From Kiritimatiellia bacterium (GTDB lineage Bacteria > Verrucomicrobiota > Kiritimatiellia > RFP12 > UBA1067), in contig JAFPUH010000001.1 of the NCBI GenBank assembly GCA_017395505.1, forward strand, positions 4,044-68,043: a stretch of DNA of 64,000 nucleotides, read 5' to 3'. A program made the position numbers and the translations under genes. The notes beneath the pieces were generated by a model. The model did not search any database, was not told where the DNA came from, and saw nothing but the letters and a program-made list of their open reading frames with translations. Numbering within the stretch: the first letter of the stretch is position 1; every line of letters begins with the position of its first letter. Below, one piece after another: positions 7,118 through 54,513 of this stretch.

Positions 7118-7149
7118 GGCGCGGGTCATCCCGCGCCTGGTGTTTTTTT
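7118..7149 (+). terminator. rho-independent terminator after acpP
   Basis: GGCGCGGG-TCAT-CCCGCGCC stem followed by a T7 tract. Confidence 0.85.
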
Positions 7150-15268: not shown

Positions 15269-15317
15269 GATGGCGAGCATTATACCAAAATTGAGGATTA
15301 TTTGGTATAATAGTGGC

Positions 15318-25578: not shown

Positions 25579-26295
25579 ATGAACCTCATAACATCCAGGA
25601 AGTCGTGGCTTACCGCCCCTGTTTTGGCGCTCGTCTGCCTCGCCATATTCGTGTGCATCTGGTCCGCTCTCGACCCGGCTACCGTCACAAGTCTTTTCGA
25701 CAACCACGGCGCCTCGCCCGTCGAACTGATGACGCTTCCTCTCTTTGCGCTGATCATTCCGCTCGTGTGGCTTTGTCCGCCATGCGGCGGCAGCACCAAG
25801 AGGCAGTGCGCTTGGGCCGCGCTCTGGTCGCTGTTGGCGATCATGGCAATCGTGCGCGAGACCGACCTTCACAAGATGCTTTTCGCGTCCATCTGGCCCG
25901 ACATCGCCGAGAGTTTCACAGGCACGGTCTTCAAGATGCGCTTTCTGAAGGCGGGCTACATTCCGTTCATGCCGAAGCTGTTCGTCGTCGCCTTCTTCGC
26001 GCTCTTCTTCGTGGCGGTGATTCTGCCGCTAGTGCGCTATATCGTGCCGCTCGTCAAGGGGTTCTTCAAGCTTGAGCCTGTCGCTTGGACCATGGCAACA
26101 TTCGGTGCGGCGAGTGTCGTCGTGATGATTGTGGACCGCCTGCCCGCGAATCTTCGCCATGCCGGTGTCGAGCTTTCGGAGACGACTCTCTCGCTCTTAA
26201 CCGTCCTGGAGGAGGGCGGCGAAATGACGATGGCCTTGATGGCGCTGTTGGCCGCGCTGCAGTCGCATCTCATTTTCGACCGTCCCAAAGAGTAG
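25579..26295 (+). CDS. multi-pass membrane protein
   Basis: About 6 hydrophobic helices, RE.D and EE..E motifs, AAAGGAG RBS. Confidence 0.75.
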   Translation: MNLITSRKSWLTAPVLALVCLAIFVCIWSALDPATVTSLFDNHGASPVELMTLPLFALIIPLVWLCPPCGGSTKRQCAWAALWSLLAIMAIVRETDLHKMLFASIWPDIAESFTGTVFKMRFLKAGYIPFMPKLFVVAFFALFFVAVILPLVRYIVPLVKGFFKLEPVAWTMATFGAASVVVMIVDRLPANLRHAGVELSETTLSLLTVLEEGGEMTMALMALLAALQSHLIFDRPKE

Positions 26296-28751: not shown

Positions 28752-28861
28752 CAGATCAAACAGTCGTTTTTAATTTTATCTTGGTCGCTCAAAAAGAAAT
28801 GCTTTGGTATAATATCTGCGTCATATGGATAACAGGATACTAATCTTAGTGAGATTGAGGA

Positions 28862-30947: not shown

Positions 30948-32002
30948 TTAGATACCAATATAGCGGCAATGGTCTTTCGGATTCGTCTTTGCCGCTGATG
31001 ACGATTCATGCGCTGTTTTACAATCAAGCGCAATTTGCGAAGGCGACATTAGAGAGCATGCTCGCCCAGACCTACGGCAATACGGAGGTCGTGGTATCCG
31101 ACGACTGTTCGCCGGATGGAACTGGCGATGTATTGCTAGAGGTTGCAAAAAACTATAAAGGTCCGCACAAGGTAGTAGTCAACATCAACGAAAAGAATCT
31201 GGGCATCGGCGACCACTTTGCGCATGTCTTGTCGCTTTCGCATGGCGAGTGGCAGACTTCTCTTGGCGGAGACGATATCGCCGAGCCCGACTATCTGCAG
31301 ACAATATACGGCTACATCAAGAGATATCCAAATGTCGTCTCCATCGGATCGTCTGCATTGAAGATCGACGAAGAGGATAATGTAATTGGCGAGGCGTATG
31401 TCGTAAGCGAGCCCAAGGTCTATCCTAGATATGAGTCCGGTCCGCTGACTTATTCCTTGAATCCCGGTGATGATGTTGCAGTCGTTCTTGTAACGGGGTG
31501 TGTGGCGACATTCAGCAAGAAACTTTTGGAAGCGCTGCCATTCCCGCGCGGCATAATGGCGGAGGATGCGTTTTTGGGCTTCCGCGCATCGCTTCTGGGG
31601 GATGTATTGTTTATCCCGGAGAAGTGTGTAAGGCAGCGGATAAATGGTGCAAGCATAATGCGAAAGGGTCGGCTTTCAAAAGGCCGGGCGGAGAGAAAGA
31701 AGTTTCGCCGTCGCATGTCGGCAATGACATTTACAACGCTTGATGCAGTACTGAAGGAGGTCCCGCTTTTAAGAGCCGATGTCAATAGCGAAGCTTTAGA
31801 CACACTTTTGTTTGAAGTTTCAGAAAGTCTGCTCGGCTCATTTTACGTGCCCGATCCATTAGGCGCCAATTATCCCAAATACCGTGAGGCGGTGCGCATG
31901 GTTTTGAGACGCAAGAGCATATTTAAGGTGCTGGGTTATGCGAGGGCAAGAGGTCTGTTTTGGCCCACACTTAAGCTGATGGTGAAAGGAATGTTTTCAT
32001 GA
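30944..32002 (+). CDS. GT2 glycosyltransferase
   Basis: [21 protein letters not shown]. Confidence 0.9.
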
Positions 32003-32409
32003 CACCCATTGCAGAGGTTTTGGAGTTTCCTATTCATGGCGACCACACGGGATCGCTCGTAGCGTTGGAGAAGGGGGATGATTTTCCCTTTGAGATAAAG
32101 CGCGTATACTACATTTGGGGGACGGCTCCTCACGTCGTGCGTGGCCATCACGCCCACAAGAATCTCGAGCAGGTCGTCGTCTGCACTTCGGGTTCTTGCG
32201 ACTTCATACTGGACGATGGAACAAGGCGCGAAACATATCACCTCGCCTCGCCTGCGAAAGGGCTTCACATAAAGAACAATGTCTGGCGCGAATTCACCAA
32301 CTTCTCGCCAGACTGCGTCGTCATGGTGCTCGCGAGCGAGCACTACAACGAAGCAGACTACATCCGCAACTACGACGACTTTTTGCGGAGCGTGGGTAAA
32401 GGGGCTTAG
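31999..32409 (+). CDS. fdtA: dTDP-4-keto-6-deoxyhexose 3,4-isomerase (FdtA/QdtA cupin)
   Basis: GSLVALE, PFEIKRVYY, RGHHAHK, VLAS..Y...DYIR.Y. The Fdt versus Qdt stereochemistry cannot be determined from sequence by eye. Confidence 0.88.
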   Translation: MTPIAEVLEFPIHGDHTGSLVALEKGDDFPFEIKRVYYIWGTAPHVVRGHHAHKNLEQVVVCTSGSCDFILDDGTRRETYHLASPAKGLHIKNNVWREFTNFSPDCVVMVLASEHYNEADYIRNYDDFLRSVGKGA

Positions 32410-33281
32410 ATTTTGCCCCAGCGGAAGCCTTTCGTATTGTAGTCGGGATATTTCGCCAGCCAGCTATCGAAGAACGCGCGAGCACGGTGAAGCTGGCGCT
32501 TCGCCTTCGGATCGCCGCCGTGCGTGTGGACGCCTATCGCCAGCGCAACGGGAACGGCCTTTTTCGGGTCCTTCACTTCGGGGTGGACCTCGAAGAACTC
32601 ATGGGTGAAGGCATCCTTCCACGATATTGTCATTCTTCGGCCATCCTCCGATACGCTCACCCCGCTAACGTCATACTTGCCGCTGCTCATGGTCTTGCCG
32701 TTCTGCGTGTAGTACGCGATAGAAAGGCCGTCCTCCGCGCCTATCTTGTCGGGGGAGAATCCCCAGTCAGGCAGAAGGAACAGGTTTTCGCCTTCGATTA
32801 TGATGTCTTCGCCGAAGACCAGGGTGCGGTCGGTCTTTGCGGAGCGGCTGTACATTCGGTTTATCACTACCTTCGGACCAGTGTTCCTGATGTAGGGGGA
32901 TACACCGGTCAGGGCAAGCATCTCCTTCACCCGCTTCAAAGGTCTGATGCAGAGCGAAAGCTTGTGCTTCTCGGGGTCGAACGTCTCGCCAGGTTCGTCG
33001 AAGCGGCCTTCGATGTTGACGCCTATCGAGAAGTAGTCTCCGACGCGGCGCGTGTTGCCGTCCGTTAGCGTTTTGGCGATGACGGTGTCGAAGAAGTGCT
33101 CGATCATCATCTTCATGGCGGACTGCGGAATGTTCAGGAAGCGCGACGCCATCACCTCGGAGAGCACCTCATCATAGCTCAACGTCCGTGAATTGCGCCA
33201 TCTGGCGATGTATCCGCCGCCGCCCGGGAATTTCTCGGGTATCGCCTGAAGCTTTATTTCCTTCTTCGTCTCGGTAAGCAT
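32406..33281 (-). CDS. HU-like DNA-binding protein with C-terminal Ig-like domain
   Basis: Y.A....RTL...E....DG..RVGDYFS...G.F HU-like pattern, then P....N....G.DI.I.GENL. AGGAGG RBS before ATG 33281. Confidence 0.65.
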   Translation of the reverse strand: MLTETKKEIKLQAIPEKFPGGGGYIARWRNSRTLSYDEVLSEVMASRFLNIPQSAMKMMIEHFFDTVIAKTLTDGNTRRVGDYFSIGVNIEGRFDEPGETFDPEKHKLSLCIRPLKRVKEMLALTGVSPYIRNTGPKVVINRMYSRSAKTDRTLVFGEDIIIEGENLFLLPDWGFSPDKIGAEDGLSIAYYTQNGKTMSSGKYDVSGVSVSEDGRRMTISWKDAFTHEFFEVHPEVKDPKKAVPVALAIGVHTHGGDPKAKRQLHRARAFFDSWLAKYPDYNTKGFRWGKI

Positions 33282-33308
33282 ATCTGGTCCTCCTATGGTT
33301 AAAAATCT

Positions 33309-33452
33309 TTTCAACTGACATTATATCATATCTCAACTGACAAAACAACCAAAGTCTACAGATAAATTTTTATATGTCAGTTGACAAATAAAAATCTTTC
33401 AACTGATAAAAAATAATTTGGCAGTTGACAAAATATAGTTTGTCAACTGACA
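33309..33452. repeat. phased array of 7 copies of TGTCAnnTGACA-like palindrome, 22-bp period
   Basis: 10-bp cores start at 33311, 33333, 33355, 33377, 33399, 33421 and 33443. Confidence 0.9.
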
Positions 33453-33523
33453 AATATCTAATGCCTAACGACTATCAAAAGCACCTTAGCTCAAAAGCAG
33501 GGTTGGAAAAGACTGTGACAAGA

Positions 33524-33544
33524 GCATCGCCGATTAGGCGATGC
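33524..33544 (-). terminator. hairpin downstream of the minus-strand GT2 gene
   Basis: GCATCGCC-GATTA-GGCGATGC, 5 nt past the stop; the U-tract is weak. Confidence 0.6.
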
Positions 33545-33549
33545 CGGTT

Positions 33550-34578
33550 TTAGACTAGGCGCTTTTTTTGTAATCTCTTGCGTATTTTATTGTATACGAA
33601 GAGCATTATTCGATATTTCAGCTTGATCTTCTTGCCTTTTGCTCCTGCATCGTTAAAAGCAGAAATCAGCTCCCTGTTTTTATGGCACGACGAGGCAACA
33701 TTGAAGAACATTTCTTTTATATAATCGGCGAATGCAAAATCCTGATTCAATTCGTTTAACGCCACAACGCACAAAGATAGGTTTTTATACGCCTCGTAGA
33801 AGAAAAATGCATTGTATTTATCTTCAAAATATGCATTGTAATCCAAATAGCATTGTGCCTGTATGATGTTTTTCTCAAATTCCGTCAGTCGAGACCAAAT
33901 GCCCGATGTCAGAAGACGATAAATGCCACTTGGCTTGGGGTCGTAGTGGGCTTTACCATATTTCAGATGCATCAGATACCTGTCAAAATCTCCCTCAAAT
34001 GAACGTTCCGAAATTGTGCCCACGGCCTTTTCCATTATACTGGGAACGCCGTTGATAAAAATCACATTCCGAAAAAACGTCCCTGTGGTTTGCGTCATGC
34101 AGATGCTGCGCTTAAAGTAATCGTCCAACGTAAAATCAGAAGAAGAGATATTTTGCGGGACAAACAAATGCTCGCTGCCATCTTCTGCCTGACAAACGAC
34201 ATTCCTGGAATATATGACATAATCAGGATGTGAGTCCAAGAAGTTGACAGCACTTTGCAGATAATCCATATCAGTCCAACAGTCATCCGCATCAAGCAAA
34301 CAGAAGTATGGGGTTTTTGTTATGGCCTTGGCTCTTAATACATTCTTGAGATACCCACCATTCTCCTGATTGTAAAGCACCTTTATCTTTTCTGGAAATT
34401 TGGCTTCGTATTGCTTAATTATTTCAACGCTTTTATCTTTTGTCGAGAAATCATCAGTAATAAGCAACTGGAAAGCGAAATCCACCTTTTGGTTTAAGAC
34501 GGATTCAATTGCACAGGAGACATATTTCTCCTGATTGTAATTGGACATAATTACGGTTACTTTGCAGTCTCCGCGCAT
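33550..34578 (-). CDS. GT2 glycosyltransferase
   Basis: YNQEKY..AIESVLNQ, DDFST, LDADD.W. Confidence 0.92.
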   Translation of the reverse strand: MRGDCKVTVIMSNYNQEKYVSCAIESVLNQKVDFAFQLLITDDFSTKDKSVEIIKQYEAKFPEKIKVLYNQENGGYLKNVLRAKAITKTPYFCLLDADDCWTDMDYLQSAVNFLDSHPDYVIYSRNVVCQAEDGSEHLFVPQNISSSDFTLDDYFKRSICMTQTTGTFFRNVIFINGVPSIMEKAVGTISERSFEGDFDRYLMHLKYGKAHYDPKPSGIYRLLTSGIWSRLTEFEKNIIQAQCYLDYNAYFEDKYNAFFFYEAYKNLSLCVVALNELNQDFAFADYIKEMFFNVASSCHKNRELISAFNDAGAKGKKIKLKYRIMLFVYNKIRKRLQKKRLV

Positions 34579-35960
34579 ATCTTCTTCCTCCGGCGCCTGT
34601 AGCTGATCTTTATGAACCCAAAAATAACAATCGTCCGGCGCTCCCCGTTTTTTATTTTTTCAAACACCTTAACTCTAAAAGGTGCGCCTGCACATCCCCA
34701 CCTTTCAAACCTCTTGATCATTTTGCAATCTTTGACATCCTTAGGGACTTCATGTCTCTTTTGCTTCATACTAAGCAAGACATCAAGTGTTATAAATTTT
34801 AATCCATGATAATAAAAATGATAATTGGGATTTTCAATGATCTTTTTCTTGGGGAAAGGATAATACTTTAACTCGCTATCATGATTTGATAGGGTTTCGG
34901 TCTGAACATCAAACGAACAGGGTCCATTATATAGGAAGTCAAAATCACTGCATTGCCTTAGCCCATATACACCAAATGGTGTGCTACCTGCTCCACATAG
35001 GCATTCAATGTCTACATTGTTTGAGGCTGCCACCACTTTCAGATCTTCAATCATTTGATCAAATCTGATATCCTCGTAGATAAACGGGCGACGGTTTATC
35101 ATTCTCAATGAATTTTCATTGAAATATGTCTCTGCCAACCATATTGCCTCTTCGCGCGAATCATTTATATGTATGCTGAAATTGCCTATTTTAAATAAAT
35201 CTCGGATTTCACTCTTTGCCTTAATAACCTTCTGAATATCATCGCATACAAAAACAAACACTCTTAATGGACTCTTGCCCATGCATTCTCTTGCATGCAT
35301 TTGGGCGCCGGCAAATTTATTCGAAACAGTGCCGATCCACGGCTCTTTTTCCCAAAATGAACCGTATGAAAGCTTCTTAAGATTGACATAGCCGTCGAAA
35401 GTGAGGCGGACACTTTTCTTATAATAAACAAAACCATACTTCTCCAGAATACTGACAACCTCTGTGTCTTTTGCTTGGTCAGTTACAGAATGAAGGTTTA
35501 CGATATATGCATTGGGGTTTAGTTTTACATATTCCAGTGCGCCAAAATCCATGATCTTAGGATCCATCTTCTGACAGATGAAGAACCTATAATCATATAG
35601 ATCACGCCTCCCGTCTGGTTCCGTTGCAACACCTTTGTTTAAATATGCACAAACAGAAAGCCTATGTGCGCCATCGCTTATCTCACCATTATCGCCAATA
35701 GGAACGAGCCCCTTTGATTCATTATATCCTACACCTTTTATAGACTCATATAAAGCATCAAAACTTTTTAGGAAATCGGCGGGGGAATTTTTGGGCTTTC
35801 CATCACTAGGCTCATCTTCGTGAAAATCGTTAAACGCCCTGATGCTTTCTAAATAAGCAGCTCTTACAAATTGATTATCAGGATACTTTAAATATAAAAA
35901 CTTGAAGATCAGGTCGAATCTTCTTTGCTTAAGAAATAACAGTCTCGCATCATGTATCAT
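34557..35960 (-). CDS. multi-domain hypothetical protein (ParB/Srx-like motif plus nucleotidyltransferase-like motif)
   Basis: DGAHRL near the N-terminus and GS......GLR...DFDF in the C-terminal third. ATGA-coupled to the upstream GNAT gene. Confidence 0.65.
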   Translation of the reverse strand: MIHDARLLFLKQRRFDLIFKFLYLKYPDNQFVRAAYLESIRAFNDFHEDEPSDGKPKNSPADFLKSFDALYESIKGVGYNESKGLVPIGDNGEISDGAHRLSVCAYLNKGVATEPDGRRDLYDYRFFICQKMDPKIMDFGALEYVKLNPNAYIVNLHSVTDQAKDTEVVSILEKYGFVYYKKSVRLTFDGYVNLKKLSYGSFWEKEPWIGTVSNKFAGAQMHARECMGKSPLRVFVFVCDDIQKVIKAKSEIRDLFKIGNFSIHINDSREEAIWLAETYFNENSLRMINRRPFIYEDIRFDQMIEDLKVVAASNNVDIECLCGAGSTPFGVYGLRQCSDFDFLYNGPCSFDVQTETLSNHDSELKYYPFPKKKIIENPNYHFYYHGLKFITLDVLLSMKQKRHEVPKDVKDCKMIKRFERWGCAGAPFRVKVFEKIKNGERRTIVIFGFIKISYRRRRKKICAETAK

Positions 35961-36892
35961 AGAGATATCTCCCAAGTATTATAGACCGCAGTTCTTCCAC
36001 CAAAGCCCTCCTTTTGGCTTATCAGGCCTTCGTTCAGAATACGCCCATCGTCTTCAGTGGAAATTCCAAAGTCGAAATACGCCTTTGTCTCAGCAAAACG
36101 ATCCATCAAGGTTTTGATCAACAAGTCTAAACCGCCGATTTCACGTGCGCTTTCGTCGGCTGCCATATATTGCGTATGCACCACATCGCCGTAAACAAAA
36201 AGCAATGTCGCCGCAATCATCCGCCCCTGCCATTCCGCAGACCAAAGTTGTATGTTGTCGCAGAACCTTGATTTCAACAGGTGCAACTCTTCGGAATTAT
36301 GAACGGCTTTTGTCGCATGGCGTTCGCCCAATACGCTGTTCTCCAGCTGGATGAAGCCGTCGAAGTCTGTTGACTCCTTTACGGACACCCCCTCACGCTT
36401 CGCCCTGGAAACTTGCGCCTTGCGTCCCTTCGGCATCTTGAAGGGCCTTTTCAGCGCCACCGTGGTGGAAGGCTCGACCTTCAGGAGATGGGCGCCGCTT
36501 CTGTATAGTGCATATAGATCCTCTTCTGCAGGGCTATGATGGAATATGTGCGGAATTGTCTTATATATGATTGTCTTCACGCCGCATTCGCCGTAATGCC
36601 GCTTCATTGCGTCAAAGCATTCCAGCATGGTATGCTGCTTCATCTGCTCGCCGTATATCATGCCGCCATACGTAAGTCCGCCGTGTGAGATAATCTTCTC
36701 ACCATGCGCGGAGGCAGGCAATACCGCCATCAGATCATTGTCCCTGTATAACATGAGCGAGGCATCTTTAAACCTGTCGGAATGATAATCCATATAGCCG
36801 CGTTCAAACATGAACATCGGCATCCTTGAATTCTGGACGAATCTGTCCCAGATTTCTAGGTCGTTGGATGTGTATGGCCGTATGGCAATCAT
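35957..36892 (-). CDS. FemAB-like double-GNAT N-acyltransferase
   Basis: W..FV..S, YMDYHSDRF.D.SL, SHGGLTYGG, HTQY, FDFGISTE, KEGFG. Confidence 0.85.
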   Translation of the reverse strand: MIAIRPYTSNDLEIWDRFVQNSRMPMFMFERGYMDYHSDRFKDASLMLYRDNDLMAVLPASAHGEKIISHGGLTYGGMIYGEQMKQHTMLECFDAMKRHYGECGVKTIIYKTIPHIFHHSPAEEDLYALYRSGAHLLKVEPSTTVALKRPFKMPKGRKAQVSRAKREGVSVKESTDFDGFIQLENSVLGERHATKAVHNSEELHLLKSRFCDNIQLWSAEWQGRMIAATLLFVYGDVVHTQYMAADESAREIGGLDLLIKTLMDRFAETKAYFDFGISTEDDGRILNEGLISQKEGFGGRTAVYNTWEISL

Positions 36893-36935
36893 CGTTTAGC
36901 GATCCTTTATATTGCGCCATATTCATCCGGCCTAT

Positions 36936-36953
36936 GTCTTCTGTAGCACAGAA
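36936..36953 (+). repeat. left inverted repeat (IRL) GTCTTCTGTAGCACAGAA
   Basis: Exact reverse complement of 38033-38050. Confidence 0.95.
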
Positions 36954-37020
36954 CCGTGAGGCTGATGCGCACACGGCGTAGAACATAGGACGTAGGTGTG
37001 GTTTGTTATCATCACTGCGT

Positions 37021-37029
37021 ATTATACCA
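37021..37029 (-). promoter_or_regulatory. extended -10 promoter TGGTATAAT inside the invertible segment, facing IRL and the GNAT operon
   Basis: ATTATACCA on the + strand; the same motif precedes many genes in this window. Confidence 0.8.
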
Positions 37030-37058
37030 AATTTTACAGCGTGGTGGGGAAAATAATT

Positions 37059-37067
37059 TGCTATGAT
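37059..37067 (+). promoter_or_regulatory. extended -10 TGCTATGAT for the recombinase
   Basis: Near-consensus TGnTATAAT about 30 nt before the ATG; AAAGG RBS. Confidence 0.55.
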
Positions 37068-37098
37068 GGACTGAACTTGAATCGAAAGGAATTACATC

Positions 37099-38016
37099 AT
37101 GAATCCAGATAAAACAACGTTTGCAGACATACTGTCCGCCTACACAAAAGCCGCGAGAGCAGAACGAGCAGCCACTGGTTCGCCCTGCGAATCAACCGTC
37201 AAGACAAACATTGGCACCACAAGGAACATATTGAAGAGGTGCAATATCTCAGAGGATGCGCCTCTGTCAAGTCTCACGCGGCAGATGTTGGCGGATTATG
37301 TAGTGCAATGCTGCGAGTGCGGTAGGCCATTGATATCGATCAAAAGCGACATTGAGCGTCTGAACGCGCTTTTTGCAATATGGACAGAGCCGCATTACGA
37401 GTATCTGCTTGGAGCGGAGTTGGGCCGCGCATTCCGATTTCCGGTACCGAGAGTGAAAGCTAGCGCTCAACGCTACACGCGCCCTGCGAGGGAGCTGCTG
37501 ATGGCGGTCAAGGCATGGTATGCAAATCTTCAAATGAACGCCAGATGCGAGGGGAAATGGATCGCGGCGACGTTGATGCTTGAGTTTGCTATGCGCAATG
37601 GTGACATCGGGCGTCTCAGATGGGACAATATAGTGGAAAAGGACGGCCGTTGCTATCTGTCGTATACGCCGCACAAGACCAAGCTTTCGTCTGGGCGCAT
37701 CGTGGTTTGGCCGGTGCATGACGACATATGGAAAGTGCTCAAGGCAATCAAAGCCAAAAGCCGTAACGAACTTGTCCTTCCCAGGGCGGCGGGGCAGATC
37801 GCACGCATAACGAGAGAGCTCCGAAGCATGGGCTTCAGAGGCAGCAAGGGAGCGTATGAACTTCGAAAAATCTGCATTGATCATGTCTACCAGAACTATG
37901 GAGCGGAAATGGCAACATCCATCAGCGGAGACAACCTAAAAACGATTTTGCGCTACTATGCCGATCCGTCCGCCCTCAATGTGATGGGCGTGCGCATATT
38001 CGACCTGATCAAGTAG
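37099..38016 (+). CDS. tyrosine recombinase (integrase/invertase)
   Basis: AMRNGDI..L.WDNI (box I Arg), PHKTK (Lys), YELRK (HxxR variant), SGD...ILRYY (catalytic Tyr). Confidence 0.85.
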   Translation: MNPDKTTFADILSAYTKAARAERAATGSPCESTVKTNIGTTRNILKRCNISEDAPLSSLTRQMLADYVVQCCECGRPLISIKSDIERLNALFAIWTEPHYEYLLGAELGRAFRFPVPRVKASAQRYTRPARELLMAVKAWYANLQMNARCEGKWIAATLMLEFAMRNGDIGRLRWDNIVEKDGRCYLSYTPHKTKLSSGRIVVWPVHDDIWKVLKAIKAKSRNELVLPRAAGQIARITRELRSMGFRGSKGAYELRKICIDHVYQNYGAEMATSISGDNLKTILRYYADPSALNVMGVRIFDLIK

Positions 38017-38032
38017 GTCGTCTGTATTATTC

Positions 38033-38050
38033 TTCTGTGCTACAGAAGAC
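38033..38050 (+). repeat. right inverted repeat (IRR) TTCTGTGCTACAGAAGAC
   Basis: Exact reverse complement of 36936-36953. Part of the perfect palindrome TCTTCTGT-GCT-ACAGAAGA (38031-38049). Confidence 0.95.
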
Positions 38051-38080
38051 GGGGGCTGAGATTTGCGGGAGCGACGATAA

Positions 38081-38524
38081 ATGAGCGCATTCATACATCC
38101 ATTATCTGACGTGCAGTCGCAGAATATTGGTGATGGTACTCGCATTTGGCAGTACTGCGTTGTGCTCCCAGGTGCGAGGATCGGCAGGAACTGTAATATC
38201 TGCTCGCACTGCTTTATTGAGAATGATGTTGTCATTGGCGACAATGTTACAATAAAATGTGGGGTTCAGATCTGGGATGGGATGCGCATAGAAGATAATG
38301 TCTTCATTGGTCCCGATGCGACATTCTGCAATGACCGCCATCCAATTTCTGGCAATGGGGCTAACTATAAGCTCGAGCCTGTAATTATCCGGAAAGGGGC
38401 GATGGTTGGCGCTGGGGTTACAGTATTGCCAGGCGTTGAAATTGGGGAAGGGGCTGTGGTTGGCGCGGGGACTACAGTTGTGAAGAGTATTCCTGCTACG
38501 GCGACATTCTTGGGGGGCAGATGA
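38081..38524 (+). CDS. FdtC/WxcM-like left-handed beta-helix amino-sugar N-acetyltransferase
   Basis: [50 protein letters not shown]...FIGP..TF.ND. Confidence 0.88.
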
Positions 38525-38985
38525 AAACGATACCCATATTCTTTAGTTTTGATGACAACTATGTAAAGCCGGCGGCAGTTGCATTTTGGTCTTTACTGGA
38601 TAAGGCGGATAAAAATGTTTCATACGATATGTATGTATTGCATCATGACATATCTAAGGAGAATCAGGCGTTCCTTTCATCGATTGTGGAAAAGGCCGGC
38701 AATGCAAGGCTGATATTTAAGGATACTGGTGGGTTTTTTTTAAATGAGTGGCGGGAGGGCAACTATGAAGGGCACCAGACTCGAACGCAATTTACGTCTG
38801 ATACCTTGGTGCGATGTTTTGCCGCCACTATGTTCCCCTATCTTGATAAAGTGATATATTCAGATGTTGATGTCGTGTTTGCTGACGACATTTCCGAACT
38901 TTGGAACATAGATGTTTCCGAATCAAGGACAGCGTGTCCGAAAATCTATCAGTCAAAGTGCCGAAAATCTATCTGTCAAGCTTGA
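38521..38985 (+). pseudogene. 3'-truncated GT8 glycosyltransferase
   Basis: IPIFFSFDDNY...KVIYSDVDVVF..DISELW, then the sequence runs into repeats at ~38915. It lacks the NSG, DQD and KPW half. Confidence 0.78.
38938..38979 (+). repeat. direct repeat CCGAAAATCTATC(A/T)GTCAA, two copies
   Basis: 38938-38956 and 38961-38979. Confidence 0.9.
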
Positions 38986-39022
38986 CACCCGACGCCACCC
39001 CCGCCCATACCGAAATTCACGG

Positions 39023-39106
39023 TTGACACGCAGATACTAAGAATGATATAATTCGCGTATCTTCAAATACTAAAACTGGGATAAAAATGGAAGTCGCAGA
39101 TACTAA
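39023..39106 (+). promoter_or_regulatory. sigma70 promoter with three CA(G/A)ATACTAA boxes at 33-bp period
   Basis: TTGACA 39023-39028, TATAAT 39047-39052; boxes at 39031, 39064 and 39097. Confidence 0.78.
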
Positions 39107-40298
39107 ACAGCTCTTGGCGGCGTCTGATCGCCTTATTTCACGCGTTCCCATGGAACGCAAGAGATACCTGTTCCCTCGCGTTGACTGGAATGACCGCCTG
39201 ATTTGCATAAAGGGTCCGAAGGGGACCGGGAAAACGACCCTGATTCAACAACACATACGTGAAACGTTTGGTATCGGCAGCGACAAATGCGTCTATATGT
39301 CGGCCGACCACATTTGGTTCGCTAAACATGACATTTTGGATGCCGTTGATTATTTTAATTCCCATGGTTTCACACACATATTTATAGATGAAATTCATCA
39401 TGCCGATGAATGGTCTCGGCTTGTTAAGACAATTACCGACACATATCCCGACCTGAATGTCGTTTACAGCGGTTCTTCCATACTCAAACTTTCATCGGGA
39501 GAGGCAGATCTCTCAAGACGCCAAGCCTCGTATAATCTGAAGGGGCTTTCTTTCAGGGAATTCCTCTCGTTTGAAGGTGTCATGGATGAGAAGGTTCTTT
39601 CTCTTGAGGACATCATATCCCACCATCGTGCCATTGCAACCGACATCTCTTCACGCACAAAGATTCTTCCGTCGTTCGAGAAGTATCTCAAGATTGGGTA
39701 TTATCCGATCTATAAAGGCGTCTCAAGCCAATTCGAGGAACGGTTAGTAGAGATTGTCAACAGCGTCATAGATGTGGATTTCCCGATAATAGAAGACTTC
39801 ACCCCGGCAACGCTACGGAAAGCCAAGAAGATGCTTATGGTGCTTGCGGAAAGTTGCCCTCAGCATCCGAACATGTCGAACCTTTATCGGGAGCTTGAAA
39901 CGAATCGAAATCTCGGACTGAAAATGCTTGAAGCCCTCGAAAGAGCGGAACTCGTCATGTCAATAGATTCTGGTAATGCAAAACTCAAGCATCTCTCGAA
40001 ACCGGAGAAACTGTTCCTCGGCGATACCAATCTGATGAATGCAATCGCCCCAAGCACGAACTCAGGGGCAATAAGGGAAACCTTCTTCGCCTCTCAACTT
40101 CGTGCCGCATCACACAAGGTCGTTGCGCCGCTTGCCGGTGACTTCTGCGTTGACGACAGATATCTCTTTGAGATTGGCGGCCCAAGCAAGGGTTTCGACC
40201 AAATCAAGGACATCCCGGATTCCTATGTGGCTCAAGATGGGGTGGAGACAGGAATTGGCAACAAAATTCCGCTTTGGCTATTTGGCTTCCTGTATTGA
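39087..40298 (+). CDS. AAA ATPase (AAA_14/DUF4143 type)
   Basis: GPKGTGKTT, IFIDEIH, SGSS...DLSRR, GYYP, KLFLGDTNL, RETFF, DF.VD....FEIGG. Confidence 0.9.
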   Translation: MEVADTKQLLAASDRLISRVPMERKRYLFPRVDWNDRLICIKGPKGTGKTTLIQQHIRETFGIGSDKCVYMSADHIWFAKHDILDAVDYFNSHGFTHIFIDEIHHADEWSRLVKTITDTYPDLNVVYSGSSILKLSSGEADLSRRQASYNLKGLSFREFLSFEGVMDEKVLSLEDIISHHRAIATDISSRTKILPSFEKYLKIGYYPIYKGVSSQFEERLVEIVNSVIDVDFPIIEDFTPATLRKAKKMLMVLAESCPQHPNMSNLYRELETNRNLGLKMLEALERAELVMSIDSGNAKLKHLSKPEKLFLGDTNLMNAIAPSTNSGAIRETFFASQLRAASHKVVAPLAGDFCVDDRYLFEIGGPSKGFDQIKDIPDSYVAQDGVETGIGNKIPLWLFGFLY

Positions 40299-40388
40299 GA
40301 CTCTGCGAGGGTGGGGTGGAGAGTGGCGGAGTAGCCCGCTTGGGGCAGGCGATTCCCACCCGATGGTTTTGCGAAAAGCAACAAATGA

Positions 40389-40485
40389 TAGGTTCACCTA
40401 AAGGCAGAAATCCTGTTTAGGTGAACCAAAAGTGATGCCGAAAATTGGTTCACCTAATTACCAAAATCGCAAATAGGTGAACCTG
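40389..40485. repeat. four TAGGTnnACCTA-like palindromes
   Basis: 40389, 40418, 40445 and 40474, in alternating orientation, directly upstream of TTGACA (40492) and TATAAT (40516). Confidence 0.88.
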
Positions 40486-40549
40486 CGCCTATTGACATAA
40501 CAGAAAGATTAATGGTATAATATGCACGATTTATGGAGGAACTACGGAT

Positions 40550-41986
40550 ATGAATTTCTTTGGCAGGGATGCTGAGATGGCGGATCTAATGTCGCTTTGG
40601 GGGAAACGAAGCGGATCTCTTGTGACATGTCGTGGTCGCCGTCGCATAGGTAAGTCTACATTGATTGAGGCTTTTGCCAACAAGTCAAAAGCTCGGTTTA
40701 TACGGATTGAGGGATTGCGACCCAAGCCAGAGTATTCTAACAAGACGGAGTTGATGACATTTGCGAGGGAGCTTGCCACGCAGACGCAGGCGGAAGACAG
40801 CATACCAGACAATTGGCTTAAGGCGTTCATTCGGTTGGATCGCGAGATAAACGACAAGGAGAGAACGATCGTCTTGCTTGATGAAGTGTCATGGTTAGGG
40901 CATTATGAGGCAACATTTGCTGACATGGTCAAGGTAGCGTGGGATGAATATTGGTCCAAGCATGATCGTCTGGTCGTTGTCGTGTGTGGTAGCGTATCGG
41001 GCTGGATCAAAGAGCATTTTGTTGACAACGGTGCATTTTTCGGACGGCGTTCGCTTGACCTTGTTGTCAAGGAGCTGCCGCTTAGGGAGTGCACTAAGTT
41101 TTGGGGTAGTGCGGCTGGCCGGGTTGAGATTCGGGAAATTATCGATGTGCTGTCTGTGACTGGAGGCGTGCCAAGGTATCTACAAGAAATAGATCCGGGG
41201 ATGTCTGCTTCTGCAAATCTTGCAAGGCTGGCGTTTCGGCCTAGTTCAATCCTGCGTATCGACTTCGACGAGATGTTTTCGGATGTGATTACAAAGCTTC
41301 CGACGCTTTCGGGGAAGATTATTCGAGCGCTTGTGAAATGTCCACTTACCGTTTCTGAAGCCGCGATTGCTGTTGGTGCCGGCAAAGGAGGCAAGATAGG
41401 CGAGGCCCTGGAGCAGCTTGAAGAGGCTGGCCTTGTTGCATCGGATGCCGGCAAGAATCCTGAGACGGGTCGGATTGCACGAGAGGTCAAATATCGCCTG
41501 AAGGATAACTATTCGCGTTTTTACTTGCGGTACATCGAGCCGAGAAAGGAAATAATAGACGCCGGAGCCTATAGGTTCGTATCGTTGGATGCTCTGGATG
41601 GATGGGACTCTATCATGGGGCTTCAGTTCGAGAATCTCGTGCTGAATCATTACGAGGCCTTGATTGAGCCTCTTCACATTGGCAATTCTTTAATCGAGTC
41701 GGCAGCCCCGTATTCGAGGAGGAGAATGGGAAATGGTCCTGATGGACTTCAGATAGATCTTCTTTTGCAGACCAAGTACAGCAATTATATAATTGAGATA
41801 AAGCGCAAGCGCGAGATTGGAATGGATGTTATTGGCGAGGTAGAGAGAAAGATTCGTAAGCTGTCGACTCCTCGCGGCAAGTCGACACGTGCTGCGCTTG
41901 TCTATGATGGAACTCTTGCGCCTGGGATTGAGACGGACGGATATTTTGATGCAATAATACCATTCAGTATGTTGTTGGGCCTATAA
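40550..41986 (+). CDS. AAA ATPase (ATPase_2 type) with HTH and C-terminal PD-(D/E)xK-like domain
   Basis: FFGR..E, GRRRIGKST, LLDE, CGS, TGGVPRYL, QIDLL...IIEIK. Confidence 0.88.
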   Translation: MNFFGRDAEMADLMSLWGKRSGSLVTCRGRRRIGKSTLIEAFANKSKARFIRIEGLRPKPEYSNKTELMTFARELATQTQAEDSIPDNWLKAFIRLDREINDKERTIVLLDEVSWLGHYEATFADMVKVAWDEYWSKHDRLVVVVCGSVSGWIKEHFVDNGAFFGRRSLDLVVKELPLRECTKFWGSAAGRVEIREIIDVLSVTGGVPRYLQEIDPGMSASANLARLAFRPSSILRIDFDEMFSDVITKLPTLSGKIIRALVKCPLTVSEAAIAVGAGKGGKIGEALEQLEEAGLVASDAGKNPETGRIAREVKYRLKDNYSRFYLRYIEPRKEIIDAGAYRFVSLDALDGWDSIMGLQFENLVLNHYEALIEPLHIGNSLIESAAPYSRRRMGNGPDGLQIDLLLQTKYSNYIIEIKRKREIGMDVIGEVERKIRKLSTPRGKSTRAALVYDGTLAPGIETDGYFDAIIPFSMLLGL

Positions 41987-42104
41987 TCCTGTGGACTCTG
42001 CGAAAAACCTATTCAACTTTGCGCTATTCATCTGAATAGAAATATGGTATAATGCTCACATTCTGGAGTTTCACGATATATAGTATTAATGGAGTAAACA
42101 CGCT

Positions 42105-43196
42105 ATGATACCGTTTCTATCGTTGAAAGACCTCAATAACCGCTTCCGCGCCGAAATCGATGCGCGGATAAAGACCATCCTCGACAAAGGGTGGTATTTG
42201 CAGGGCGAGGAGAACGAGCGCTTCTCCAAGAACTTTGCGGCCTACTGCAGGGCGAAGGGTGCGGTCGGCGTTGCAAACGGACTCGATGCCCTCAACCTCA
42301 TAATCCGTGCATACGGTTTCGGTCCTGGCGATGAAATCATCGTTCCGGCCAATACATTCATCGCGACGATTTTGGCCATAAGCGAAAACGGCTGCACGCC
42401 TGTGCTAGTCGAGCCGGATATCGAAACCTATTGCATCGACCCGGAAAAGATTGAGGCGGCGATCACGCCGAAGACGAAGGCCGTGATGGTTGTGCATCTC
42501 TATGGACAGGCCGTGCCGATGGAGAAGATATGGGCATTGCAGGCGAAATACGGATTCAAGATTATTGAGGACGCCGCCCAGGCTCATGGCGCAATCTATC
42601 AAGGGCGCAGGACAGGCAATCTCGGCGATGCCGCAGGGTTTTCGTTCTATCCCGGCAAGAATCTCGGCGCAATGGGTGACGCCGGCGGAGTGACGACGAA
42701 CGATCTCGATATTCTCGAGAAGGTCAAGGCGATCGGCAACTACGGCAGCGACAGGAAGTATCATCACATCTACAAGGGCGTCAATTCGAGGCTCGATGAG
42801 ATTCAGGCTGCGGTCTTGGATGTTAAGCTTGCGCATCTTGACGCCGACAACGCAAGGCGCCGCGAGATATCGAAGCTCTACCGCGAGCGCATTACGAATC
42901 CACGCATAATCCTGCCGAAAGCCTATGACGAGATGGCCCATGTCTGGCACCTGTTCGTGATTCGCTGCGATGATCGGGACGGCCTGGCGGCGTATCTTAA
43001 GGAGCGCGGAATCGAGACGAACATACATTATCCGATGCCGCCTCACAAGCAGGGCGCGTATGCCGAATGGGCCGAGAGGTCTTATCCGATAACGGAGAAG
43101 ATACACCGCGAAGTCTTGAGTTTGCCGATAAGTCCGACAATGACGGATGAAGAGGCTCAGCGTGTTATCGACGCTGTGAATATGTGGAATGCCTAG
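42105..43196 (+). CDS. fdtB: DegT/DnrJ/EryC1/StrS aminotransferase, FdtB/QdtB-like
   Basis: NGLDAL, VPANTFIAT, EDAAQAHG, FSFYPGKNLGAMGD, NSRLDEIQAA. Own TGGTATAAT near 42045. Confidence 0.9.
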   Translation: MIPFLSLKDLNNRFRAEIDARIKTILDKGWYLQGEENERFSKNFAAYCRAKGAVGVANGLDALNLIIRAYGFGPGDEIIVPANTFIATILAISENGCTPVLVEPDIETYCIDPEKIEAAITPKTKAVMVVHLYGQAVPMEKIWALQAKYGFKIIEDAAQAHGAIYQGRRTGNLGDAAGFSFYPGKNLGAMGDAGGVTTNDLDILEKVKAIGNYGSDRKYHHIYKGVNSRLDEIQAAVLDVKLAHLDADNARRREISKLYRERITNPRIILPKAYDEMAHVWHLFVIRCDDRDGLAAYLKERGIETNIHYPMPPHKQGAYAEWAERSYPITEKIHREVLSLPISPTMTDEEAQRVIDAVNMWNA

Positions 43197-53851: not shown

Positions 53852-54513
53852 AGGCGGTTGTCGTTCTATCCGGCGGACAGGACAGCGCGATCGCCCTCGC
53901 CTTGGCCGTGCGCAGATATGGCGCCGGCGAGGTGGCCGCCATGACCTTCGAGTATGGACAGCGCCACGCGCTCGAGACGAAGTTCGCCCGCTCGCTCGCC
54001 CGCCGCTTCAAGATCGCCGCCCACAAGATCGTCCGCCTCGACTTCTACCGTCACCTCACCAGCAACGCCCTGATGTCGAAGGACGCCCCAATCGAACGCA
54101 AGGCCGGCTCGAAGTGTCCCACTACCGTCGTCGAGGGACGCAACGCCTTCTTCCTCTTGGCGGCCTCGGTCTGGGCCAAGGAGCTCGGCGCGCGGCTTGT
54201 CTACACCGGCGTGTCCGAGGCGGACTTCTCGGGCTACCCCGACTGCCGCGAAGCCTTCATCAAGGCGCAGCAGAAGGCGATTCGCCTCGCCCTCGACTGC
54301 GACATCCGGATCGTCACGCCCTTCATGCACATGACGAAGGCCGACGAGTGGGCCCTCGCGGACGATCTCGGCATCTTCGACGTCATCGACAACCATACCC
54401 TCACGTGCTACAACGGCGTTCCGGGCAAGGGCTGCGGCGAGTGCCCCGCTTGCCTCCTGCGCAACCGTGGACGCTCCGAATACCTCGCCCGCCGCGGGAA
54501 GGGGACGCGATGA
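53848..54513 (+). CDS. queC: 7-cyano-7-deazaguanine synthase
   Basis: SGGQDS, YGQRH, GYPDCR, TCYNG...GCGECPAC.LR. Confidence 0.95.
   Translation: MKAVVVLSGGQDSAIALALAVRRYGAGEVAAMTFEYGQRHALETKFARSLARRFKIAAHKIVRLDFYRHLTSNALMSKDAPIERKAGSKCPTTVVEGRNAFFLLAASVWAKELGARLVYTGVSEADFSGYPDCREAFIKAQQKAIRLALDCDIRIVTPFMHMTKADEWALADDLGIFDVIDNHTLTCYNGVPGKGCGECPACLLRNRGRSEYLARRGKGTR

Follow-up and report, generated by a model that had tools for sequence, protein, structure and literature searches.

A probable promoter-inversion switch that carries its own tyrosine recombinase between two glycan units of a ruminant-gut Kiritimatiellae bacterium

A recombinase-carrying segment between perfect inverted repeats

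The 64,000-nucleotide stretch of DNA analyzed here (hereafter the window) corresponds to positions 4044-68043 of contig C17 in genome G000 (1.8 Mb in 56 contigs, 90% complete), whose host is an uncultured Kiritimatiellae bacterium from the ruminant gut. At 36936-38050 the window contains a 1115-bp segment that is bounded by inverted repeats, encloses a predicted tyrosine recombinase gene and a promoter motif, and is flanked by two divergent glycan units. We regard this segment as a likely site-specific inversion switch, in which the enclosed recombinase flips one promoter between the two units and gives an A-or-B decoration of the surface glycan. An invertible, recombinase-carrying promoter cassette between divergent glycan units had been proposed in an initial annotation of this DNA, and the proposal is supported by two strand-change joints in one metagenome (run X12) and by the presence of both junction types in another (run X1). 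The runs in which the locus occurs are animal gut metagenomes, with no RNA run among those listed. The features of the segment are the following.

36936-36953, both strands: left inverted repeat, proposed recombination site, GTCTTCTGTAGCACAGAA (repeat search; contig breaks in X1 and X4; strand-change joints in X12)
38033-38050, both strands: right inverted repeat, exact reverse complement of the left one (repeat search; loose end in X1; similarity end at 38049 in X8)
36936-38050, both strands: invertible segment, 1115 bp including both repeats (its own X1 contig, 36936-38062; inverted relative to both flanks in X12)
37021-37029, minus strand: predicted outward promoter element TGGTATAAT within AAAATTTGGTATAATAC, a genome-wide motif that points through the left repeat into the GNAT unit
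37059-37067, plus strand: weaker extended -10-like motif TGCTATGAT, possible recombinase promoter, 32 nt upstream of the recombinase start
37099-38016, plus strand: predicted divergent tyrosine recombinase, 305 residues (fold, catalytic residues and a Pfam match below the cut-off)
38001-38020, plus strand: weak terminator-like hairpin that spans the stop codon of the recombinase gene, with a T-rich tail after it (-10.1 kcal/mol folding energy; z -1.85)

The two repeats are perfect over 18 nt and are the only two matches in the window when up to 3 mismatches are allowed (chance expectation, 0.01); at least two matches to the 18-nt repeat were observed in none of 100 shuffles. The repeat arm reads TTCTGT-AGC-ACAGAA, a 6-3-6 palindrome with two 6-nt half-sites around an asymmetric centre, and two half-sites around a centre are the usual build of a tyrosine-recombinase core site. 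The asymmetric centre gives the site a direction, and the mutually inverted arrangement of the two sites therefore predicts inversion rather than excision. Exact copies of the 15-nt repeat core are present in the 1.8-Mb genome at these two sites only. Between the repeats there are one long open reading frame (ORF), at 37099-38016 on the plus strand, and a minus-strand TGGTATAAT motif facing outward through the left repeat. Both the perfect repeats with their asymmetric core and this content of recombinase gene plus outward promoter motif had been described in the initial annotation, and both were found as described. With short inverted repeats around DNA that is seen in both orientations (see below), the segment has the properties of an inverton. 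A search of metagenome contigs with the 18-mer returned 12 loci with one match each and no pairs, which we read as chance matches that are uninformative on orientation.

Both orientations are present in metagenome assemblies

The orientation of the segment was analyzed in Logan contigs from four runs of four studies (X1, X4, X8 and X12), which were mapped onto positions 33000-41000; these are assembled contigs, not reads, and they give no orientation ratio. Run X1 is the probable source sample of the assembly, having been flagged as a possible source. The contigs of X8 and X12 cover only parts of 33000-41000, and their reading makes use of contig-bridged joints alone.

Record 9 of X12 (4420 nt) matches 35957-36874 on the plus strand, after which it switches to the minus strand and runs from 38055 back to 36994; in record 10 of the same run, the reverse complement of 38343-38062 is followed by the window sequence from 36936 on. 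The two joints were each scored as lying on opposite strands: the left flank meets the 3' end of the recombinase gene, and the right flank meets the promoter end. These are the two junctions expected of an in-place inversion, with the promoter end placed beside the acetyltransferase gene of the right unit. Record 25 of X8 is colinear with the window over 35957-38049, continues with 4111 other letters and rejoins the window at 40310.

The X1 contigs that cover the locus end at 36965, span 36936-38062 and span 38033-39740, with 30-nt overlaps located exactly at the repeats, as expected at the branch points of a k=31 graph. In addition, a 12-letter loose end, TCAGCCTCACGG, before 38033 is the exact reverse complement of positions 36954-36965 of the window, and it thus indicates the inverted right junction. 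The X4 contigs also break at the left repeat. Sample X1 thus appears to contain both orientations.

The enclosed gene probably codes for a divergent tyrosine recombinase

An AlphaFold2 model of the 305-residue protein, built from the family alignment (predicted local distance difference test score, 81.3), has the two-domain fold, core-binding plus catalytic, of tyrosine recombinases. Foldseek searches with this model yielded 61 matches at E ≤0.001; the top matches listed were all tyrosine recombinases, the best of them being lambda Int (1z1g, E 5.4e-7), XerH, Cre, XerA, Tn1549 Int and an integron integrase, with E values up to 2e-5. The catalytic motif of tyrosine recombinases is R...K...H-x-x-R...H/W...Y. 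In an alignment of 11 sequences, which comprises the recombinase and ten homologues from related genomes, residues R166, K193, Y253-E-x-R256 and Y287 are invariant, and R256 and Y287 are spaced by 31 residues; these residues were assigned to the motif by spacing and conservation, not by structural superposition. The protein is thus predicted to be a divergent tyrosine recombinase on the basis of its fold and of most of the catalytic residues, its sequence score falling below the curated threshold. No NCBIfam recombinase model matched it. The tyrosine-recombinase fold of the enclosed gene product sets it apart from the serine invertases (Hin/Gin/Cin), and the only PF00239 gene of the genome lies on contig C47. 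The recombinase gene is present in a single copy, as the sole member of its family in the genome, and its product is the enzyme that most likely recombines the two 18-bp sites.

The extended -10-like motif TGCTATGAT may serve the recombinase gene, and the hairpin over the stop codon may, tentatively, limit read-through into whichever unit faces the 3' end of the recombinase gene.

Other repeat pairs are present in the same genome. On contig C47, 29-nt perfect inverted repeats (C47:40141-40169 and 41341-41369) are located 1.17 kb apart and about 1 kb from the sole resolvase-family gene (C47:42436-42870), and they are another candidate for an inversion switch. Two more pairs of long perfect inverted repeats are present at C29:24258-24337 and 25597-25676 (80 nt, 1.3 kb spacing) and at C40:53671-53722 and 54369-54420 (52 nt, 0.65 kb).

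The segment carries a probable promoter, and neither unit has a copy of its motif

The motif TGGTATAAT has 182 copies in the 1.8-Mb genome, compared with about 14 expected from its length alone and with 2-10 copies of its one-letter variants. More than half of these copies (104 of 182) fall in the approximately 10% of the genome that lies outside a crude ORF set, and 74 of the 182 are located at most 200 nt upstream of a same-strand ORF start. Alignment of their contexts gave the consensus AAATTTGGTATAATAC, in which a -35 element is not conserved, and the copy within the switch, AAAATTTGGTATAATAC, fits this consensus. Thus, TGGTATAAT looks like the dominant -10 element, that is, the standard promoter of this organism, and there is a strong case, made at the level of motifs, for a promoter at 37029-37021. 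The promoter claim of the initial annotation is strengthened by this genome-wide use.

A motif map of the neighbourhood located TGNTATAAT motifs ahead of the deacetylase-to-FdtA unit (28805, plus strand), an HU-like gene (33328, minus strand), two ATPase genes (39044 and 40513, plus strand) and the aminotransferase unit (42045, plus strand); none was detected upstream of 38081 or in 36893-36935. The two short spacers between the repeats and the flanking genes are hence free of TGNTATAAT, in agreement with the earlier suggestion that these genes have no clear promoters of their own. Since neither unit has its own promoter motif, the cell would express one or the other.

The recombinase, which would be expressed from inside the segment in either orientation, is proposed to pair the inverted sites and to invert the 1115 bp. 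In the assembled orientation, TGGTATAAT, situated at the end opposite the recombinase 3' end, would read leftward into the unit of the GNAT, the 472-residue protein and the family-2 glycosyltransferase (GT2). In the flipped orientation, the same promoter would read rightward into the unit of the FdtC-type N-acetyltransferase and the GT8 glycosyltransferase.

Examples of TGGTATAAT in the window are located at 7149, 8057, 15303, 28805, 40513, 42045 and 63548 on the plus strand and at 15287, 25427 and 37029 on the minus strand. A pair of TGGTATAAT motifs that point away from one another occupies the 33 nt at 15279-15311 (ATTATACCA...TGGTATAAT), and a similar pair is present in one of the recombinase homologue loci described below (L007:1897-1951).

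The flanking units and the amino-sugar pathway

The genes of the two units, and the two amino-sugar genes that lie outside the switch, are listed below.

35957-36892, minus strand: FemAB-like GNAT (Acetyltransf_6), 311 residues, first gene of the left unit (Pfam; starts 43 bp outside the left repeat)
34557-35975, minus strand: soluble protein of 472 residues without a Pfam family, second gene of the left unit (Pfam scan; strain-variable)
33550-34578, minus strand: GT2, third gene of the left unit (Pfam Glycos_transf_2, E 2.9e-24)
38081-38524, plus strand: FdtC/WxcM-N-type sugar N-acetyltransferase, 147 residues, first gene of the right unit (Hexapep; PDB matches; starts 30 bp outside the right repeat)
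38521-38985, plus strand: GT8 glycosyltransferase cut short after its first ~134 residues (match to Pfam profile positions 1-130 of 253)
31999-32409, plus strand: FdtA-type 3,4-ketoisomerase, last gene of the unit behind the TGGTATAAT motif at 28805 (Pfam FdtA, E 6e-49)
42105-43196, plus strand: QdtB/FdtB-type sugar 3-aminotransferase behind the TGGTATAAT motif at 42045 (PDB 7n63, E 3e-157; 5u1z, E 2e-140; QdtB 3frk, E 1e-126)

The first genes of the two units start 43 bp (GNAT) and 30 bp (acetyltransferase) outside the repeats, exactly as the initial annotation had it. The GNAT matches Pfam Acetyltransf_6 with E 1.9e-9 and 38.3 bits (cut-off 22) and the FemAB equivalog TIGR03019 with 47.8 bits over residues 15-283, far under the cut-off of 260; no relative was found by sequence in the PDB. 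For the 472-residue protein, an Atlas lead pointed with high confidence to a 'WbfN family'. The region 34652-35957 of its gene is replaced by 1052 other letters in X8 and X12.

The right-hand enzyme had been called FdtC/WxcM-like, and this assignment holds: its best PDB matches are 7s3u (E 7e-60, residues 4-143) and the WxcM-like 4mzu (E about 5e-54), followed at a greater distance by the WlbB-like 3mqg (E 1.2e-23) and QdtC 3fs8 (E 6e-15), so that it shows full-length close similarity to solved enzymes of the FdtC/QdtC/WxcM-N type. The translation of the following GT8 gene ends in ...LWNIDVSE and then continues with unrelated residues, and X4 and X12 contigs carry other sequence past 38921, where the GT8 reading frame continues. 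The match to profile positions 1-130 only, together with the divergence of the X4 and X12 contigs past 38921, indicates that GT8 is truncated in this strain. Thus, the earlier statement that each operon includes its own glycosyltransferase stands only in part: the left unit has its GT2, and the GT8 of the right one is cut after ~134 residues in this strain.

Two ATPase genes follow GT8, AAA_14/DUF4143 (39087-40298) and ATPase_2 (40550-41986), each behind a 12-of-12 TTGACA-18-TATAAT promoter. Contigs from other runs join 40374 back to 38921, or ~40341 directly to the promoter region of the aminotransferase, and the two genes (38921-41986) appear to be strain-variable modules. The spacer at 38051-38061 varies between runs as well.

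As the initial annotation had it, fdtA and fdtB are located outside the switch, and their units have separate predicted promoters, the TGGTATAAT motifs at 28805 and 42045. The FdtA-type isomerase and the aminotransferase would make dTDP-3-amino-3,6-dideoxyhexose, and matches to RmlA and RmlB above the cut-off are present elsewhere in the genome. The other hexapeptide protein, encoded in the FdtA unit, resembles xenobiotic (CatB/Vat) acetyltransferases and not FdtC, which leaves the switch-controlled gene as the sole FdtC-like gene found in the part of the window that was examined (~28-48 kb). In the flipped orientation the FdtC-type enzyme would acetylate the amino sugar, and in the assembled one the GNAT would add another acyl group. 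Such two-acyl chemistry on one amino sugar, plausible for the acetyltransferase and putative for the GNAT, is conceivable, with the balance of probability lying against it.

Recombinase homologues and their sites

Matches to the recombinase were found in 13 of 60 related genomes, with 25-47% identity over full-length matches and up to 58% over partial ones; a query of metagenome contigs with the single recombinase protein found no relative. A scan with the family alignment, limited to one genome per species, gave 70 loci, and 86 homologue loci were fetched overall. The loci of the closest relatives belong almost all to metagenome-assembled genomes of Kiritimatiellae/Kiritimatiellia from ruminant or other guts, together with a few of Verrucomicrobia or Lentisphaerae, and some of them look mis-binned.

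Long inverted duplications adjoin the homologues in L027, L042, L064 and L069. Within each of L027 and L069, the two arms become similar abruptly from TCTGCGCC(G/A)CAGTAGG onward, a sequence that the window arm TCTGTGCTACAG resembles. The core motif CTGYGCYRCAG has 13 copies in the 0.51 Mb of homologue loci versus 4 copies of a reversed control there, and 13 copies in the 1.8-Mb genome of the window, two of which are the window sites. L033, L053, L060 and L067 each have one CTGYGCYRCAG some 80-350 bp ahead of the recombinase gene. The 70 homologue loci contain no match to TTCTG-N5-CAGAA or to longer pieces of the window arm. The L027 site falls within the signal-peptide coding region of a complete ORF (MIAASAAL|CAAVGFG...), and the inverted copy beside the recombinase gene has the same body and is start-less (NRYLSGSY|CAAVGFG...); in L069 the neighbouring gene has a PEP-CTERM motif. 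The layout of L027 looks like a coding-sequence-swapping inversion system, and that of L027 and L069 supports, at the level of sequence comparison, a role of the family as invertases and the window repeats as its probable cognate site type. Homologues lie beside inverted duplications of secreted or PEP-CTERM protein genes in L027:254-3800 and L069:4905-7648, and also in L042, L064 and L048.

Two sets of candidate sites were discarded. The second site of L033 (2734) is probably a chance occurrence; the site next to the recombinase gene of that locus resembles the L027 cassette that has no start, and it is interrupted by the end of the contig. The inverted repeats beside the homologues of L049, L052, L055 and L059, which have CTTCTGTAG in common with the window repeat, were rejected as related sites since they are palindrome copies flanking an IS200-like Y1_Tnp gene. 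This Y1 transposase has a winged-helix/Fic-like C-terminal domain and is flanked in these four loci by palindrome copies of up to 40 nt; its gene is situated just upstream (L049, L052 and L055) or downstream (L059) of the homologue, with a Phd/YefM antitoxin gene in between in L052. Repeats of at least 16 nt were present in 17 of 55 homologue loci, a figure inflated by the IS200-like palindromes, versus 31 of 395 random pieces of G000, a one-genome control.

Tight repeats around the gene were sought within 500 bp on each side of it, with 65 loci being analysable and five lying too near a contig end. Only the window, with 18 nt, and L043, with a 27-nt heptamer array, have such repeats; those of the other loci measure 5-12 nt, which is the chance level. 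The initial annotation had expected homologues to have flanking inverted repeats, and this expectation was borne out in part: inverted sites whose core is related adjoin the gene in L027 and L069, and tight repeats were seen at L043 only among the 65 loci. The homologue of L043 (417-1400) lies between inverted arrays of the heptamers AAACTCC/AAACTCT (265-388 and 1410-1516) on a 3.2-kb contig.

The homologues have varied housekeeping genes as neighbours, and the arrangement of the window is not a conserved synteny. A tblastn comparison of 17 window proteins with the 86 loci yielded nothing beyond an AAA_14 ATPase (L038) and a weak match to ATPase_2 (L070). In L013 (G026:C24), the homologue reads through a long APSTAHQ/APSTKPQ repeat insertion between its two domains. 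Many homologues are located within a few hundred bases of a contig end, e.g. L034, L071, L074, L091, L092, L051 and L073 (a count made with no control), possibly because assemblies break where DNA is variable or repeated.

Weighing the alternatives

Several observations weigh against a self-encoded two-way switch. As regards the enzyme, the match of the recombinase to Pfam PF00589 (Phage_integrase) reaches 19.4 bits over residues 156-230 (E 9.6e-4; cut-off, 27.1), a profile of its family had no match among PDB sequences at E up to 1, and an invariant tyrosine (Y253) occupies the position before the second arginine where a histidine is usual; moreover, the genome has five other PF00589 genes and one resolvase gene, whose products could conceivably act in trans. 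As regards the homologues, L043 alone among the 65 analysable loci has tight repeats around the gene, and no relatives of the window's glycan genes were found near homologues in the 86 fetched loci. The presence of both forms within X1 rests on contig breaks and one 12-letter end, and the difference between X12 and the window could be due to two strains fixed in opposite orientations. Finally, motifs alone are the basis for assuming that the promoter is active and that other start sites are absent, the weakness of the hairpin (z -1.85) makes read-through from the recombinase gene into the other unit possible, and the truncation of GT8 renders the B state incomplete in this strain.

This last point is the starting point of an explanation in which the inversion is real and works as an ON/OFF switch of the left unit only, the right side being a decayed remnant and the flipped state yielding at most an orphan acetyltransferase. 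The cut of GT8 at ~134 residues agrees with such decay, and so do the ATPase genes behind it, which vary between strains and have consensus promoters of their own, and the replacement of the X8 right flank from 38049 by 4111 other letters. However, the gene of the 147-residue acetyltransferase is complete, lacks its own promoter motif and begins 30 bp from the repeat, and its product strongly resembles characterised enzymes (E 7e-60); furthermore, the GT8 frame continues beyond 38921 in X12 and X4, and in X12 the promoter end faces an intact unit. We consider this explanation unlikely. An integron-like role, with the 18-bp site acting as an attI-like point of cassette exchange, capture and swapping of glycan cassettes as the main function and inversion as a side reaction, would account for a recombinase gene divergent from an outward promoter that is followed by a site and then by variable genes, a layout similar to that of an integron platform. 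It would also account for the end of the X8 similarity at 38049, a single base short of the outer edge of the right repeat, before the 4111 other letters, and for the variation between runs of the spacer 38051-38061 and of the gene region 34652-35957. Nevertheless, a replacement starting at the repeat was observed in one run only, glycan loci are commonly mosaic through ordinary recombination, and the identity and inverted arrangement of the two sites agree with inversion; downstream, where no dedicated attC search was made, neither a second site nor an attC-like element was noticed. Cassette exchange as the main role is accordingly regarded as very unlikely.

With its small size (1.1 kb), inverted repeats at both ends and only one enzyme gene, the segment looks like an insertion sequence, and the homologues occur in varied contexts, often near contig ends and IS200-like genes, so the recombinase could be the transposase of a small mobile element whose two orientations arose from independent insertions. 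Against this, the segment is single copy in the genome and its site core is found nowhere else; the same two flanks are attached to opposite segment ends in X12, with junctions at the repeats in X1, X4, X8 and X12, which indicates in-place inversion and would not be expected of independent insertions; and the related sites of L027 and L069 bound inverted gene cassettes and not element ends. A mobile element is the least probable of the explanations considered, and is very unlikely. The site-specific inversion switch, with one promoter aimed at either of two glycan units, thus remains the likely reading of the locus.

A broader proposal joins the locus to its homologues. A clade of recombinases in gut Kiritimatiellae, which has a tyrosine in place of the box-II histidine, scores under the Pfam cut-off and uses a CTGYGCYRCAG core, might run both coding swaps of secreted PEP-CTERM proteins, with the site in the signal peptide, and a two-way promoter toggle. 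The toggle might let the FdtC-type enzyme acetylate dTDP-3-amino-3,6-dideoxyhexose in one state and the FemAB-like GNAT attach a different, possibly aminoacyl, group to the same sugar in the other, with a separate glycosyltransferase for each state. We offer this combination tentatively and hold it, as a whole, to be doubtful.

Significance and comparison with known systems

Phase variation of surface glycans is a main way in which gut bacteria escape from phages and host immunity. To our knowledge, nearly all worked examples of glycan phase variation come from Bacteroides and a few pathogens. The present locus would represent a compact natural two-way toggle in an uncultured ruminant-gut phylum, with both orientations found in public assemblies, and it provides a testable handle on a recombinase clade that is missed by standard models, together with a candidate core site. 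If the two units indeed generate two N-acyl forms of one amino sugar, the variable trait would be sugar chemistry and not the presence or absence of a capsule. All the parts are known in kind (invertible promoters, invertase-with-promoter segments, promoters aimed at two genes and synthetic flip switches), and invertons are common. A literature search retrieved no Kiritimatiell* paper on invertons or phase variation, supplementary inverton catalogues (e.g. PMC11602134) being outside its range. Within the range of the same search, which brought up known switches of Bacteroides and Clostridioides as well as synthetic ones, no description was found of a natural promoter toggle that works both ways and encodes its own tyrosine recombinase.

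The Hin system of the Salmonella H-segment consists of a serine recombinase that needs an enhancer and Fis, and its promoter drives one side, the A-or-B outcome being achieved through a co-expressed repressor. The segment studied here shares with Hin an invertase gene and an outward promoter inside an invertible segment of ~1 kb with short inverted sites, and it differs in its tyrosine-recombinase fold and in the genes that wait on both sides. The capsular-polysaccharide switches of Bacteroides are ON/OFF for each locus; Mpi is a serine recombinase with global action in trans, and the Tsr genes are neighbours of the DNA that flips, not part of it. The Mpi/Tsr switches and the present locus have in common a gut bacterium as host, short inverted repeats and a flipping promoter for surface-glycan or surface-protein loci. 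Unlike them, the window has its recombinase gene inside the flipped DNA, the host belongs to the Kiritimatiellae, and the promoter is of the TGGTATAAT type.

The fimS element of E. coli (314 bp) contains no gene, the genes of FimB and FimE lie outside it, and it works as an ON/OFF switch of one operon. As in fimS, a short promoter-bearing element between inverted repeats would be inverted by a tyrosine recombinase, and, in contrast to fimS, the segment carries the recombinase gene and its proposed output is A-or-B. In the sap locus of Campylobacter fetus, inversion takes place through long homologous 5' regions and RecA, with no dedicated recombinase inside. The sap locus resembles ours in that a single invertible promoter is aimed at one of two opposed flanking genes, an A-or-B choice; it differs in that the window segment has its own site-specific recombinase inside, and in that the genes concerned are glycan genes here and S-layer protein genes in sap. 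The nearest engineered design is the synthetic recombinase 'exclusive switch', or rewritable data module, in which a promoter is reported to flip between two reporters (bioRxiv 10.1101/068759). In that design, one promoter between inverted sites drives either of two divergent outputs, as proposed here, whereas the phage integrase and excisionase are supplied from outside the flipped DNA and not, as in the window segment, encoded within it.

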